A stretch of DNA of 64,000 nucleotides. Source: Octopus vulgaris (Eukaryota). This document shows, in pieces, positions 65-24,735 of the stretch (within the stretch, counting starts at the first letter, position 1; every line of letters starts with the position of its first letter). The stretch is from assembly GCA_951406725.2 (NCBI GenBank), contig OX597836.1, forward strand, positions 8,184,001-8,248,000, given 5' to 3'. The notes below the pieces were generated by a model, which worked only from the letters and a program-made list of their open reading frames with translations, made no database searches and was not told the origin of the DNA. The translations under genes and the position numbers were made by a program.

Positions 65-133
65 ATAGAGCAGTTGTATACTGTCAACTTCATGGGTCTG
101 TCACGTTAAGTTGACAGTATACAACTGCTCTAT
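65..133. repeat. Perfect 26-bp inverted repeat with 17-nt loop (copy 1)
   Basis: atagagcagttgtatactgtcaactt (65-90) is the exact reverse complement of aagttgacagtatacaactgctctat (108-133). Confidence 0.95.
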
Positions 134-1884: not shown

Positions 1885-2760
1885 CGTACCACCACTGCTT
1901 GTATCTCTTTCAGGTATTTAGAAATGTAATATTTATATATATATATACATACACACATACATGTATGTATATATATATATATAGCAAACTGTACCCACGC
2001 GTGTATGCATGTGAATGTAAGCTAGACATAAGGAGAGAAGAAATATAGAGAAGTCCAGGAGTGACCTGAAAGACACTTTTTAAGAAATAATTTAATTTTC
2101 TTTCACATTTTTCAACGAATTTAATAAGATATTCTACGTTCACTTCAAACTTGATGTCTTCGCGAACAGAACAGAAATTCTCATCTCCAAATATCAACAC
2201 CAAAGACTGATAAGCGATTGAACAATACCAGTTTCCTCTTTAGAAAGCGGTCTTGGTACTTGTCAATTGTCGTGGTCCCGGTTTTGCACACGCGAATTCG
2301 CGCGCGCGCGCGTCAGACGTAGGTACTCGATACTCGAGATCCTACGAGGTGACTTGCGCATGCGCAGTGCAGAATTCGCGCGTGCGCGTTAAACCCCCCC
2401 CCCCTAAAAAAAAAGGTGTTGGATTTCACTAAAAATATATATGTGTGCGTGTGTGTGTGTGTGTGTATATATATAACATTTTCAATTTTACACAAAAAAA
2501 TTACATAGTCGCTTTCCTCGCGGATTTACAGAGAAATGAATTAATTACTATTTTACAGAATAAAATTAATGAATTAATTATATAAATTAAATAATTCTTG
2601 AAAATTAATTAATATTAATAATATTTTTTGAACAAAGTAAATAATTTATAAAACTTGGTTAATAATTTTTTTTACACAAACGCGAACGTATATAATTTGT
2701 GAAACTTTTTTTTTTTTACAGACGTATATAATTTGGTAAACTTAATGAATTAATTTCTTC

Positions 2761-3185
2761 TCATCATCATCATCGTTTAACGTCCGTTCTCCATGCCAGC
2801 ATGGGTTGGACGGTTCGACCGGGGATCTGGGAAGCCAGAAGGCTGCACCAGACTCCAGTCTTATCTGGCAATGTTTCTACAGCTGGATGCCCTTCCTAAC
2901 GCCAACCACTCCGAGAGTGTAGTGGGTGCTTTTTACATGCCACCCGCACAGGTGCCAGGCGAGGCTGGCAACGGCCACGGTCGGATTGGTGCCAGTCGAG
3001 GCGGCTCTGGCATCGGCCACGATTCGGATAGTGCTTTTTACGTACCACCAGTCCAGGGGTCCTGGCATTTGCCGGGTGCCACACTTGCCCCAACATGTCT
3101 TCGCAAGCAAAGGGGGTTGGCATGGGTGCCTGTCGTGGGATGAGGTTCGATATCAACTTCGCTTGCCTCAACAGGTCTTTGTGTA
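2761..3185 (-). mobile_element. GC-rich SINE/LINE-tail-like retroposon with (GAT)n tail inside the left arm
   Basis: On the minus strand it ends ...ccgtccaacccatgctggcatggagaacggacgttaaacgatgatgatgatga. Sharp GC contrast with the AT-rich arm. Confidence 0.7.
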
Positions 3186-4251
3186 TAAATGTATAAATTT
3201 TTCGCACTAAATTCTTTCCGTAGAATTTATCAAAAAACGCGCAAAATTATTCCGTAGACTTTATCAAATTAAAAAACGCAAAATTAATATATTTTTTGAA
3301 ATTGCAAATTATTTAGAATATAAAACAAATTAAGTTAAATTTTAAAAATAAATGTCATATACTTATACTCTGTAAGGTGCTGTGTTCACACTTCAATTTA
3401 CTATTTTCTAGAAATGTTGCTTTTCTAATTGAAACAATTTTTCTCAATCTCCATTTAAAAGTCCATAATGCCTCTTGAGCCATATCAAAATGAACAACTT
3501 TGAATTACCCGGTGGTGGTGGTGGTGGTGGTGTGAGGTTCTAATTTTTTTTCTGATCTCTCTTTGCCCCCTCTTTATCTCAGTTGTTCATTCAGCTAATA
3601 TTTAGAAAAATTTTCGCGCCCAATTTTTGTTGTCGCGGGAAAAGATGAACGATTTAAAATAAATATATCTTAATTGTAGTGTGAGAAAGTATATATATTC
3701 TGATGACAAAATATATTATCTTTCAAAAACATCCCAAATTTATAGACTATATCGTGTAGGTTTAAGAAATATATATATATATATATATATATAGATATAT
3801 ATATATATACATATATAGTAGAGAATGAAACATCTTTCATCTGTCTCCCCACCACACCTCCATCTAGGGGGGGGGGCAAAGAGAGATCAGAAAAAAAATT
3901 AGAACCTCACACCACCACCACCACCGGGTAATTCAAAGTTGTTCATTTTGATATGGCTCAAGAGGCATTATGGACTTTTAAATGGAGATTGAGAAAAATT
4001 GTTTCAATTAGAAAAGCAACATTTCTAGAAAATAGTAAATTGAAGTGTGAACACAGCACCTTACAGAGTATAAGTATATGACATTTATTTTTAAAATTTA
4101 ACTTAATTTGTTTTATATTCTAAATAATTTGCAATTTCAAAAAATATATTAATTTTGCGTTTTTTAATTTGATAAAGTCTACGGAATAATTTTGCGCGTT
4201 TTTTGATAAATTCTACGGAAAGAATTTAGTGCGAAAAATTTATACATTTAT

Positions 4252-4675
4252 ACACAAAGACCTGTTGAGGCAAGCGAAGTTGATATCGAACCTCATCCCA
4301 CGACAGGCACCCATGCCAACCCCCTTTGCTTGCGAAGACATGTTGGGGCAAGTGTGGCACCCGGCAAATGCCAGGACCCCTGGACTGGTGGTACGTAAAA
4401 AGCACTATCCGAATCGTGGCCGATGCCAGAGCCGCCTCGACTGGCACCAATCCGACCGTGGCCGTTGCCAGCCTCGCCTGGCACCTGTGCGGGTGGCATG
4501 TAAAAAGCACCCACTACACTCTCGGAGTGGTTGGCGTTAGGAAGGGCATCCAGCTGTAGAAACATTGCCAGATAAGACTGGAGTCTGGTGCAGCCTTCTG
4601 GCTTCCCAGATCCCCGGTCGAACCGTCCAACCCATGCTGGCATGGAGAACGGACGTTAAACGATGATGATGATGA
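4252..4675 (+). mobile_element. Mirror copy of the same retroposon inside the right arm
   Basis: Reverse complement of 2761-3185; yields identical mirrored ORFs (2793-3143 vs 4293-4643). Confidence 0.7.
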
Positions 4676-4960
4676 GAAGAAATTAATTCATTAAGTTTAC
4701 CAAATTATATACGTCTGTAAAAAAAAAAAAGTTTCACAAATTATATACGTTCGCGTTTGTGTAAAGAAAATTATTAACCAAGTTTTATAAATTATTTACT
4801 TTGTTCAAAAAATATTATTAATATTAATTAATTTTCAAGAATTATTTAATTTATATAATTAATTCATTAATTTTATTCTGTAAAATAGTAATTAATTCAT
4901 TTCTCTGTAAATCCGCGAGGAAAGCGACTATGTAATTTTTTTGTGTAAAATTGAAAATGT

Positions 4961-5001
<41 letters not shown>

Positions 5002-5749
5002 TTTTAGTGAAATCCAACACCTTTTTTTTTAGGGGGGGGTTTAACGCGCACGCGCGAATTCTGCACGGCGCATGCGCAAGTCACCTCGTAGGATCTCGAG
5101 TATCGAGTACCTACGTCTGACGCGCGCGCGCGCGCGAATTCGCGTGTGGAAAACCGGGACCACGACAATTGACAAGTACCGCGGTCTTTTCTTACTTTAT
5201 GATAGATGACTGGCTAATTACAGTTTTATAAAGATGTAATGAGTATTTTTTAATGAAGTTAATAAGGAACTTTACCTTCAATGCTGACATGAGACGTCTC
5301 CTTCGTTGAGAATGCAGGAACCAACTGATATGACTCAAAGACGATGGTTTAGCTTAGAAAGTTATCGTCTGCTAAAACTGGAAGAAAGGAAGATTCGGTT
5401 GTTTCCGGATAATTCCGGTTTGAATTTCGTTTGTGAAATAACTGTGAGTGAGTGTGTGGGTATGTGTGTGTGTGAGAGAGAGAGAGAAGAGAGCGAGATA
5501 GAAGAGAGGGAGAGAGAGATAGAATATATATATAGAGAAAAGAAGTCTCTGTGTTAGAGACAGAGTAAGAGAAAAGAGAGAGAGAAGGGAGATAGAGAAA
5601 GAGAGAGGAAAGGAGTATCTGTGTTATAGAGAGAGTAAGAGAGAAAGAGAGAGAGAAGGAAGGGAGAGGGAGAGAGAGAGAAAGAGTGAAAGAGAGGGAT
5701 ATAAAAACATCTTCTCCCATAGAACAACCGGTCTAAATTGTAGCCTCAA

Positions 5750-6568: not shown

Positions 6569-6637
6569 ATAGAGCAGTTGTATACTGTCAACTTCATGGG
6601 ATTGTCACGTTAAGTTGACAGTATACAACTGCTCTAT
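6569..6637. repeat. 26-bp stem hairpin (copy 3)
   Basis: Perfect arms 6569-6594 / 6612-6637; loop catgggattgtcacgtt. Confidence 0.92.
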
Positions 6638-8132
6638 CGTACCACCACTGCTTATATCTCTTTCAGGTATTTAGAAATGTAATATTTATATATATATATA
6701 TACATACACACATACATGTATGTATATATATATATATAGCAAACTATACACACGCGTGTATGCATGTGAATGTAAGCTAGACATAAGGAGAGAAGAAATA
6801 TAGAGAAGTGCAGGAGTGACCTGAAAGACACTTTTTAAGAAATAATTTAATTTTCTTTCACATTTTTCAACGAATTTAATAAGATATTCTACGTTCACTT
6901 CAAACTTGATGTCTTCGCGAACAGAAGAGAAATTCTCATCTCCAAATATCAACACCAAAGACTGATAAGCGATTGAACAATACCAGTTTCCTCTTTAGAA
7001 AGCGGTCTTTTCTTACTTTATGATAGATGACTGGCTAATTACAGTTTTATAAAGATGTAATGAGTATTTTTTAATGAAGTTAATAAGGAACTTTACCTTC
7101 AATGCTGACATGAGACGTCTCCTTCGTTGAGAATGCAGGAACCAACTGATACGACTCAAAGACGATGGTTTAGCTTAGAAAGTTATCGTCTGCTAAAACT
7201 GGAAGAAAGGAAGATTCGGTTGTTTCCGGATAATTCCGGTTTGAATTTCGTTTGTGAAATAACTGTGAGTGAGTGAGTGAGTGAGTGTGTGGGTATGTGT
7301 GTGTGAGAGAGAGGGAGAGGGAGTAGAAAGAGTAAGAGAGCGAAAGAAAGAAAGAGACAGAGAGAGAGAGTGACCGGGAAGATGGCAGGTGTGAGAAGAT
7401 ACAGTAAGAGGAGTCGAAAAGAGGATAAAAGAAAGTGATGTAAAAGATAGGGAGTGAGAGAGAGAGGGGGAAGAAAGAGAGAGAGAGATAGAGGTAACGA
7501 GAGAGAGAGAGAGAGCGATAGACGGGTGTGAAAGAGTGATAGTGTGAGAACATTGTAAGAAGGGGTTGTAAAAAGGAAAACAGAAAGGAATATGAAAGAT
7601 AGGGAGTGAGGGAGAGAGAGAATAAGGGACAGAGAAAAGAGAGAGAAAAAGAAGTAAATACAGAAAGTGTTTAACTTATTTGTCAATGTATATTTTTTCA
7701 TGGGTATGCCCGTTACTTTCATAGATTTGTATATTTGTTTTATGTCACAGATGTATTAAAATGTTATTGTTGTTGTTTAAAATATTCAAGCTATAGATAA
7801 ACTGTCTTAACTTTTCATCTCATCCAGTGTGACCCTCCGTTTTTAAAATGGCAATGAGTGACATTGGGATGTGAGTATATGTGTGTGTGTATGTCTGTGT
7901 CTGTGTGCGTATGCGTGTATGTATGTGTATATGTGCGCGCGAGTGTGTGTATGTGATTGTGAGAGGGACAATATATATATATGTATGCAGCACGGAATTT
8001 TGTCAGTGAACAGGTCGCGGTCTCAAAGCGACGAAAATATTTTGACAAATTAAATTTAAACGTTGAAGTGAATCTAACGGTTTTTGTGTGTTTCTTAAAT
8101 GGCTTATAAACACCTTCCACGCTGCAATTGTT

Positions 8133-14436: not shown

Positions 14437-16180
14437 ATTACCAAGTGTATATCCTAAATATACATAAGGTAAAGGCACCGCTTAAAGAATTACTAAAAAA
14501 TAGATGACAAATAGGTTTGGACAGAGAAATGCCAGAAAGAATTTAACGAGTTAAAAGATATGTTAACTTCAGACTTGTATCTTACGCATTTCGACCCAAA
14601 GTTAGAGATAATGATGGCTACAGATGCGAGCGAGTATGGGATAGAAGCCGTGCTCCTACACAAGGATAACCATGGCAGGAGAAAGGCCATAGCTCACATA
14701 TCAAGGACATTATTGTCGGCGGAAAAGAGATATAGCTAGATTGAAAAAGAAACGTTGGCTATTATATTTGAGGAGAAAAAGTTCCACAAGTTCATTCACG
14801 ATAGACATTTTTGGTTGCCAAAGGACCAAAGACCTCTAATAATGATATACAGATCCAAGAAAGGAATCCCGATACATATGGCAAACAGACTGCAGCGGTG
14901 GGGTACCATTCTACTAATCTACGATTATAGAAGGGAATATCTGCTTTCAAAAAAGTTGGGGCATGCCGATGATCTGTGTAGGTTAATTCCGAGAAATAAG
15001 GAATCGCTGAAGGACACCGTAGTAGCAGCGCTAAACGTGGAAGCAGAAACAAAAAAAAAAGTGATGTGGAACATCGTGCGTGAACTACCAGTAACTTTGG
15101 AAGAAATAAAAAGAAATGCGAGAAATGACAAATTTATTAATGAGACAAAAGAAAACTGTGGTCGACAAAAGAAAATAAAGAAATGTCTGAACATAAAGAA
15201 CCGCCAGAGCGTGCACTCTATATGTGATGGTGAACTAATGTACGCTCAGAGGATGGTCATACCACAGACATTACAGAAGAGAATGCTAAAAGAGCTGCAT
15301 GTGCCACACCCAGGCATCTTTAGAATGAAAGCGCTGATGCGAAGTTTCGTTTACCGGCCAAGCATGGGCAAGGAAGTTGAGAACCTGGTAAAAGGCTGCG
15401 GATGATGTGCGCTGGCAGCGAAACTACCTACAACAAAATATGGACTTTGACCAGAAGTGAAAATACCATGGTCCCGATTGCATATCGATTTTGCAGGCCC
15501 GGTAAATGGATATTATTACTTAATAGTATTGGACAGCTACACAAAATGGCCTGAGGTCGCAAGGTGTAAACGACCAACCTTATATACGGTAATAAACTTC
15601 TTACACGAACTGTTCGCAAAATTTGGTGTACCGGATATAATTGTCTCTGATAACGGAACACATTTTGTATCCTGTGAGTTTAAAAGATTCTGCGAGAAGT
15701 TCACCTTAGAACATAAAACTATAGCACCATATCACCCTAGATCGAATGGAAGAGCCGAAAGGTAGGTGGACACTGTTAAGAGAGCTTTAAAGACAGCTAA
15801 TAAGGAAGCCACGGACGAAGTCGCAATCCAACAATTCTTAAGAGTATACAGGGTAACTCCGATCACAAATGCGCCAGAAAGAAGTTCACCAGCAGAATTA
15901 ATGTTTGCCAGAAAGGTGAAGTCGGTATTCGATAAATTGTTACCAGTGAATAAAAAGATACATGCTAGTAAAGACATGCCAAGATTCTTTAGAATTGGTG
16001 ATAAGATTTATGTAATAATGTACAAAAATGGCAAGCAATACTGGGAAGAAGGAGGAATTGTAACATACATAGGAAGAATGATGTATGGTGTAAGAAGAAG
16101 AAATGGAATGGAAAGGAGACAGTGAAATCAGCTTCAGGAAAGAGTCATAGAAAAGGAACCAACAAGAGTAGAAATACCGA
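14437..16180 (+). pseudogene. Ty3/Gypsy LTR retrotransposon pol remnant (RNase H + integrase, K02A2.6-like) with stops
   Basis: WTEKCQKEF..LTHFDPK..ATDASEYGI..YS*IEKE (RNase H); LHVPHPGIFRMKALMRS..C (zinc finger); PWSRLHIDFAGP..DSYTKWPE..IVSDNGTHF..PYHPRSNGRAER (rve core). No LTRs seen. Confidence 0.95.
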
Positions 16181-23704: not shown

Positions 23705-24735
23705 GAAAAGACCCAGTAAAAGGGAAAGCGACAAATCAAGGTTCAAGAGTTGTTGAAGACCCAATAAAAGAGCTTGGACATACTGGCCACTTGTGATAAT
23801 TTTTTAACAAGTCTAGGATTGGCTCGAAAGCTGCTTAGCAAGAAAACTACTTTAGTTGGAACAATTAGAAAGAACAAAATTGAACTTCCAAGTGCTTTCC
23901 CAAATGGAAAAGAAAGAGAACTCAACAGCACAATATTTGGATTTCAAAAGGATTCTATGATCATATCTTATTGTTCCAAGAAAAATTATGTAGTCACACT
24001 TATGAGTACAATGCACTCTTAGCCTTCAGTTGATTCAAAAAGTGGTGAAAAGAAACCTGAAGTTATTACATGTTACAACAAAACATAAAATAGTAAGGAC
24101 ATGTACTTGCAAAAGAATAACTCAAAGATGGCCTATGGTTATATTCTACAACATGATTGATATAAGTGCAGTGAATGCTTTCGTTGTTGTTGAACAGCTT
24201 CACTTGCAAAGAAGACAGTGTCTGATTCAGTTAGGAAAGGAACTTGCCGGAGTTAATGCGAAACAAGAACATGACAAACGATCTAGTTCCGCGAACATTT
24301 CTCAACCAAACAAGAAAGAAGACGATCTTCAACCTCATTTGAGATTCCCCAGCCAAAGTCAAAAGGAAGATATTCTTTGTGTGCCGCCCCCCCCGCCCCC
24401 CCCCAAAAAGAAGACAGGAAAATTCGTACTACATATAAGAATTGTAATATCCGTGTTTGTCAAGAACACTCCAATGGTGTTTGCATTCACTGCCATGAAG
24501 AGGTGTAATTCTGAATTTTTGTAAGTTTTAAAATTTATGATATATTCTGTAAGCTGTATTTTTTAAAATTAAAATCTATGAGAAACAGTAATTCTTCATT
24601 CACCCGATAGCATATATAATGTAGCTAAGGAATAGAGGTAGTCTGAATAAAGTTTAATCAAAATAAAAACATTAGGTCCATTGGACCCGGTCGGTAATTA
24701 GTGACATACATTTTCTCTGGTAGAGCAAGAGTTAA
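23705..24735 (+). pseudogene. piggyBac transposase remnant (PGBD4-like) with right end at TTAA
   Basis: TCDNFLTSLGLARKLL..TLVGTIRKNK.ELP..STIFGF..VTLMSTMH..KPEVI..YNKT..TCKRITQRWPMVIFYNMIDISAVNAF. The element ends ...ggtagagcaagagTTAA (24732-24735). Confidence 0.9.

Follow-up and report, generated by a model that had tools for sequence, protein, structure and literature searches.

A gene-less palindromic Merlin element of Octopus vulgaris with arms that evolve in concert

The window analysed here, a stretch of 64,000 nucleotides of Octopus vulgaris DNA (G000:C23:8184001-8248000, in a searched genome of 2.8 Gb), carries a palindromic element of 2926 bp that is placed by its sequence in the Merlin superfamily. 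This Merlin foldback, which contains no complete gene, probably arose by inverted duplication of a nested deletion derivative of two Merlin families; it was probably mobilised in trans by the transposase of one of them, here called family A, and probably homogenised by arm-to-arm conversion. What is new is that the arms evolve in concert and that the ancestry of the element is unusually complete; Merlins with long terminal inverted repeats (TIRs) and TIR extension were already known, and the classification is unchanged. Both the transposase partner and an origin in one step are matters that we infer.

Structure of the element and its target site

The original prediction had described an element of 2926 bp (2255-5180) with termini GGTAC..GTACC, arms at 2255-3570 and 3872-5180 and a spacer of about 300 bp, all of which was borne out by realignment. 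An exact 8-bp target-site duplication (TSD), also predicted, was confirmed as GCGGTCTT on both flanks (2247-2254 and 5181-5188). The two arms account for 89.7% of the element length, a foldback-type structure in which long inverted arms make up most of a gene-less element. Differences between the arms were few, as predicted, and consisted of five substitutions (2286, 2366, 2441, 2448 and 2670) and three repeat-length slips, namely 2 nt of CG (tract of 14 versus 16 nt), 3 nt of a C run and 6 nt of GGT (7 versus 5 units). The parts of the element were as follows.

2247..2254, unstranded: left target-site duplication, 8 bp, identical to 5181-5188
2255..3570, plus strand: left arm of the inverted repeat, 1316 bp, 98.8% alike to the right arm over 1318 aligned columns
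2255..2653, plus strand: family-A Merlin terminus and subterminal region, found 3' of the transposase gene at L093, L094 and L096
2761..3184, minus strand: very-high-copy interspersed repeat, inserted, with a (GAT)n tail; inner boundary approximate, TSD not seen
3194..3532, minus strand: what remains of a nested family-B Merlin, namely an eroded TIR, the 3' flank, part of the coding sequence and the 5' flank up to the GGT tract
3385..3483, minus strand: family-B transposase N-terminal remnant, about 33 codons (tblastn 58% identity, E about 3e-8)
3571..3871, unstranded: unique spacer, 301 bp, ending at a G run opposite the C run that closes the left arm
3872..5180, minus strand: right arm, 1309 bp, repeating the left arm and its sub-parts in inverted orientation (coding remnant at 3953-4051)
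5181..5188, unstranded: right target-site duplication, 8 bp
7002..7009, unstranded: empty copy of the target in the adjacent tandem unit

The pre-insertion allele was located where it had been predicted, as a single, vacant GCGGTCTT in the next unit of a local tandem array with a period of about 1.75 kb. The array reaches left beyond the window, and two more of its units (window ~472, and L062:8794 immediately to the left of the window) carry a variant target. Contigs of three sequencing runs stop at 2254, with none of those listed crossing into the element, a pattern that also results from the sister tandem units. An imperfect palindrome of about 69 bp, possibly a small MITE, was present in every tandem unit (window 65-133, 1818-1884 and 6569-6637).

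The element had been described as lacking a transposase, which holds for a complete gene; each arm nevertheless contains a Merlin transposase remnant of about 33 codons, matched by tblastn to family-B proteins at E 3e-8 to 3e-9. Five internal frames, out of 34 listed, were submitted to Pfam, with no family returned, and the two Rfam matches in 2200-3900 both fell far below the gathering score and were set aside as chance. The arms of Drosophila FB elements consist of internal tandem subrepeats, and the octopus arms differ from them in that only microsatellites were reported by TRF in 2255-5180. Elsewhere in the window, two frames were noted that we take to be a fragment of an LTR-retrotransposon pol gene (14740-15405) and a piggyBac-like C-terminal fragment (24006-24524).

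The dispersed family and its Merlin relatives

Genome searches with the terminal sequence and a table of TSD lengths, the checks proposed with the original prediction, recovered a dispersed family. With the first 146 bp as query, the best 40 of 272 candidates were scored and all proved 98-100% identical, and an exact 27-nt terminal pattern was found 177 times genome-wide (87 + 90) against 0 for the reversed control, so that the family is not due to chance and comprises at least about 89 elements. From top matches and unpaired termini, 66 loci were fetched as a non-random sample. These held 57 two-ended elements, with an exact TSD of 9 bp in 28, an exact TSD of 8 bp in 22, one mismatch in 3 and none in 4; two of the assignments fall in microsatellites and are ambiguous. 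Insertion targets were AT-rich. Forty of the elements, including the window copy, are 2.75-3.0 kb long, and extrapolation from 100 listed matches gives about 60-70 full-size copies genome-wide. The insertion had been called real, and these full-length copies at different loci with TSDs of their own, together with the empty site adjoining the window copy, uphold that.

In derivatives of 1.1-1.7 kb one arm is long and the opposite end is reduced to 35-104 bp. Mini-elements of two termini only were also seen (L159:356-437, 82 bp; L160:343-426, 84 bp; L113:9598-9719, 122 bp), the first two with no clear TSD. Two pairs of copies lie about 11-12 kb apart (L040 and L167 at G000:C9:55.067 and 55.079 Mb; L168 and L169 at C2:106.44-106.45 Mb), and the C9 pair, which has its left flank in common, is likely a local duplication or an assembly duplicate. 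The stretch 3160-3760 was also present in runs under two other organism labels (20 rows, 8 studies), with no RNA run among those listed, and in an independent sample a contig of run X1 (3260-3688) runs across the joint of left arm and spacer. In organisms B and C (runs X12 and X20) a shorter relative was seen from which 2337-2666 and 2693-3236 are missing, the high-copy insert included. Summed contig depth over the spacer, which is not a copy number, was much higher in one organism A run than in B and C. Contigs on the arm and spacer occurred in one guessed-RNA run, which says nothing on transcription.

The available text of PMC8101967 defines Merlin by GG ends, an 8-9-bp TSD and a DDE_Tnp_IS1595 domain. 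Terminal 5'-GG TIRs are present in the octopus element, and the TSDs of its family were exact at 8 or 9 bp in 50 of 57 elements, with one mismatch in 3 more. Element positions 1-399 (2255..2653) correspond to the terminus directly downstream of DDE_Tnp_IS1595 genes at L093, L094 and L096, with about 5% substitutions (18/374, 17/344 and 18/353), and related AT-rich sequence goes on to about 2763. Of the first 30 nt, 27 are identical to L093, and 28 and 29 in older variants. The PF12762 profile was run against the genome, with the best 150 of 476 candidates scored, and a 294-aa open frame at L093 (given also under L071) matched PF12762 alone at E <= 0.001, without Zn_Tnp_IS1595; its three acidic motifs appear intact. 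Among named proteins, those most similar to the linked transposase come from Octopus sinensis (91%) and O. bimaculoides. The sister element L103 encloses Merlin fragments between short TIRs of the GGTAC type and is flanked by a TSD of 9 bp. The Merlin assignment, originally made from termini and TSD, thus stands, the transposases next to the terminus at these loci being DDE_Tnp_IS1595 and not MULE, hAT or P. Relatives with the same terminus encode DDE_Tnp_IS1595 and not the P-type transposase of Galileo, and the fetched copies align to the element throughout, with no MULE or hAT gene suggested in them. Judged by sequence, the element agrees with Merlin in every feature except the usual TIR length: its 1.3-kb TIR exceeds the published range (24-462 bp in text, up to 1000 bp in a Repbase table). 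TIR length is treated as descriptive, not diagnostic, in the accessible part of PMC3573991. According to the portion available of PMC10294476, Merlin is nearly restricted to cephalopods among the molluscs it covers.

A recently active partner transposase had also been predicted. An intact two-ended autonomous family-A partner was not found among the fetched relatives: L093 has the open 294-aa frame and one end only, L096 is frameshifted and L094 carries a stop. Seven matches to the family-A upstream region were inspected for the natural 5' end of the family, and none had that end. Family B was rejected as partner, its TIRs being different from the element ends and eroded inside the element. 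The spread of the family, seen in its TSDs, would on balance be attributed to the family-A transposase acting in trans. It is possible, if less probable, that the recent burst is owed to some other Merlin transposase, from another GGTAC-ended family or one absent from the assembly. No competent two-ended family-A element is on hand, several sister families have GGTAC...GGTCCCGG ends in common, and in three guessed-RNA runs the contigs are of the frameshifted L096 type and not of the L093 type. TSD length also shifts between the subfamilies described below, from 8 bp in 12 of 17 older to 9 bp in 23 of 33 younger elements (Fisher p 0.015, post hoc, in a non-random sample), and a second transposase may account for this. 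Against a different transposase, no terminus that was found comes closer than that of family A (27-29 of 30 nt), L103 and family B being clearly more distant, and family A retains one open 294-aa frame.

Further observations were made on the relatives. At L096:4211-8408 a one-ended family-A element still has a 9-10-bp direct repeat on its two flanks, and its TIR-less end opens at a small hairpin of upstream sequence that was found in L093 too. A dense nest of fragments of multiple Merlin families occupies G000:C14:64318000-64349000 (L211-L214, L096 and L187), with all listed matches on the same strand, an arrangement resembling that of a one-strand piRNA cluster; the guessed-RNA contigs mentioned above match the L096 type in this nest. 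A high-copy family (L193-L209, 267 candidates; e.g. L194:1043-2599) carries a family-A-type end and 3' region within a larger repeat, which we take to be Helitron-like from its hairpin/CTAG end.

Ancestry and origin of the palindrome

The outer arm corresponds to the family-A 3' terminus, the inner arm to family-B remnants and the spacer to the family-A upstream region (3622-3791 aligns with sequence 5' of family-A transposase genes, with 7/161 substitutions to L094). In older chimeras (L133, L153 and L154) the junction is the same, and the family-B TIR survives there with a longer part of the coding sequence. The insert at 2761..3184, likely a retroposon 3' fragment to judge by its sequence, is missing from these chimeras and from L156. 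The family-A gene would have been lost, a family-B element would have nested in and lost its own TIRs, and the high-copy repeat would then have inserted. The likely order is a family-A derivative, nested family B, repeat insertion and duplication, although conversion could blur the last two.

At L210 the spacer sequence continues past the point where the element turns back, and all 39 aligned full-length copies have the same right-hand spacer junction, found also in the 4.9%-diverged L158. For the turn itself we lean slightly towards a break some 300 nt beyond the C run, repaired by a strand that folded back, was primed on a G/C microhomology of 3-5 nt and copied the arm as far as the terminus. 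The G run that faces the left-arm C run at the turn would fit priming on a short microhomology; against it counts that the junction microhomology is short and lies within a homopolymer. Since no family-A copy with the other end was found, the outer ~400 bp may be an ordinary long TIR to which the inner ~900 bp were added later.

A rather unlikely alternative is that the arms of the same Merlin family grew stepwise by TIR extension of the Galileo type, one end being repaired from the opposite end, in the same copy or a different one, and the repair reaching into internal sequence, a mechanism proposed for Galileo in the available part of PMC3573991. The insert and the family-B remnants entered at different times yet sit in both arms, unequal-armed copies exist and arm-arm conversion is evident, all of which such growth would accommodate. 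It is opposed by the single right-hand spacer junction in which the 39 full-length copies and L158 all end, by the unequal-armed copies each having a breakpoint of its own, as in deletions, and by the failure to find an older relative with shorter matched arms and the same spacer. That a MULE-, hAT- or P-type foldback only captured Merlin fragments is very improbable: long TIRs and 8-9-bp TSDs also fit these superfamilies, but the element ends, up to its last bases, in the Merlin terminus found at three gene-bearing loci, which largely refutes it. Least probable of all is that assembly or fold-back reads created the palindrome as an artefact. In favour of this, the sequencing runs offered contigs and no long read across both arms; against it, 40 full-length copies at different loci share one junction, with their own TSDs, subfamily structure and an empty site adjoining.

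Returning to the fold-back, single-locus Merlin inverted duplications with 3' ends outward and no TSD seen were found at L094, L106, L107, L108 and L177. We tentatively consider, as a possibility short of the favoured reading, that 3'-end fold-back recurrently restores matched ends of one-ended or crippled Merlins and that conversion, coupled to transposition, preserves a nearly perfect palindrome of 1.3 kb over millions of years, seeding hairpins; the five inversions would fit recurrent fold-back, though none has a TSD. Their polarity is only a hint, because the search domain is C-terminal and favours the 3'-outward orientation. A larger duplication at L109 is not clearly bounded by Merlin ends. 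Opposite-strand Merlin pairs at L110, L175/L176 and L179-L181 were checked as palindromes and were not. The L177 palindrome (L177:2239-4341, G000:C20:37.66 Mb) belongs to family B and has 820-bp arms that are 100% identical, without a TSD. The centre of the L094 duplication (L094:4400-5317) is a fragment inserted in a (TA)n tract, which we assume from its motifs to be Helitron-like.

Concerted evolution, age and known systems

The arms of 39 full-length copies were aligned over 1023 columns, with gappy and microsatellite columns masked and L055 left out because its boundary motif is missing. Arm divergence was 0.22% within a copy versus 0.56% between copies, the latter the same for left-left, right-right and left-right comparisons, and no left/right difference was fixed among the 39 copies. 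At 10 sites with at least 4 carriers, 379 of 385 left-right calls agreed (2000 shuffles: mean 71.5%, maximum 83.6%). Private variants were found in both arms of one copy in 13 cases and in one arm only in 73, and five low-count variants were common to different copies, in one arm each. L158, at 4.9% from the window copy and with a 9-bp TSD, has inner arms that differ at 1/160. The variants common to both arms of a copy indicate that new mutations reach both arms, and the 73 one-arm variants that conversion is not continuous. Arm-to-arm conversion, taking place as gaps left by excision or breaks in hairpins are repaired, is very probably what homogenises the arms, and the same repair, if aborted, would likely yield the 1.1-1.7-kb derivatives with one long arm. 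Both-arm variants may also have been inherited from unsampled parents. The arms are known here from assembly and contigs, and polishing could have blurred them, which we regard as a lesser cause because linked variants define subfamilies.

A recent and real insertion had been read from the identity of the arms; recent and real it is, but homogenised arms do not date an insertion, and youth is instead shown by copy-to-copy divergence. The younger subfamily (29 copies including the window copy) is 0.22-0.26% apart and the older (10 copies) about 0.95%. At 0.0036 substitutions per My, as quoted in the portion available of PMC13282606, rough ages would be ~0.3 My for the younger subfamily, ~1.3 My for the older and about 7 My for L158.

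In this case each component of a foldback can be traced to its source, concerted evolution of TIRs can be measured over 39 copies, and arm-to-arm identity is to be distrusted as a measure of insertion age. Inverted repeats that are long and nearly perfect are as a rule unstable; since this family spread in that form, it can be tested whether arm conversion is linked to the repair of excisions. Heavy A-to-I editing is characteristic of the animal group that includes octopuses, and if copies sit in introns or UTRs, 1.3-kb duplexes would be predicted to form in such animals. Were fold-back recurrent, dozens of hairpins would be spread across the octopus genome as substrates for editing or small RNAs and as fragile sites.

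Canonical Merlin/IS1016 elements, with TIRs of 24-462 bp (Feschotte 2004, as summarised in the accessible text of PMC8101967), resemble the octopus element in 5'-GG ends, 8-9-bp TSD and a DDE_Tnp_IS1595 partner without Zn_Tnp_IS1595, and differ from it in that it has 1.3-kb TIRs and no gene. Supplement file 5 of PMC8101967, in which most rows have no length, gives TIRs of 1000 bp for the zebrafish Repbase entries Merlin-1_DR and Merlin-N5_DR, which are, like the octopus element, Merlins with long TIRs. Merlin-N5_DR, likewise non-autonomous, would be about 4.3 kb long to judge by the positions of its mirrored tandem repeats. Compared by table only, the zebrafish arms take up roughly half the element at most and contain tandem arrays, whereas the octopus arms take up 90% and, unlike the zebrafish Merlins, are built of two Merlin families and a retroposon-like insert. 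For Galileo, 2-TIR and extended-TIR copies, TIR extension and chimeras are described and conversion is proposed in the available parts of PMC3573991 and PMC4168063. Its non-autonomous copies are similarly nearly all long TIR and recruit internal sequence and inserted elements; with its P-type transposase and 7-8-bp TSD, however, Galileo is an element that the octopus one works like without being a member.

The description as a possibly undescribed foldback-type Merlin proved apt for the foldback-like build and too strong on novelty, given the zebrafish Merlins with 1000-bp TIRs and a possible place in the octopus library. No paper on a palindromic Merlin in cephalopods was found in the literature searched, the scope of which excluded most subscription journals and Repbase Reports. 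The O. vulgaris library of PMC13282606, of which part was accessible, has 18 Merlin consensus families and may already hold this one. Two of those families are given as active in recent times; their 11 insertions total 28,998 bp, and the mean of 2.6 kb, compared by description only, is close to the size of the octopus element.
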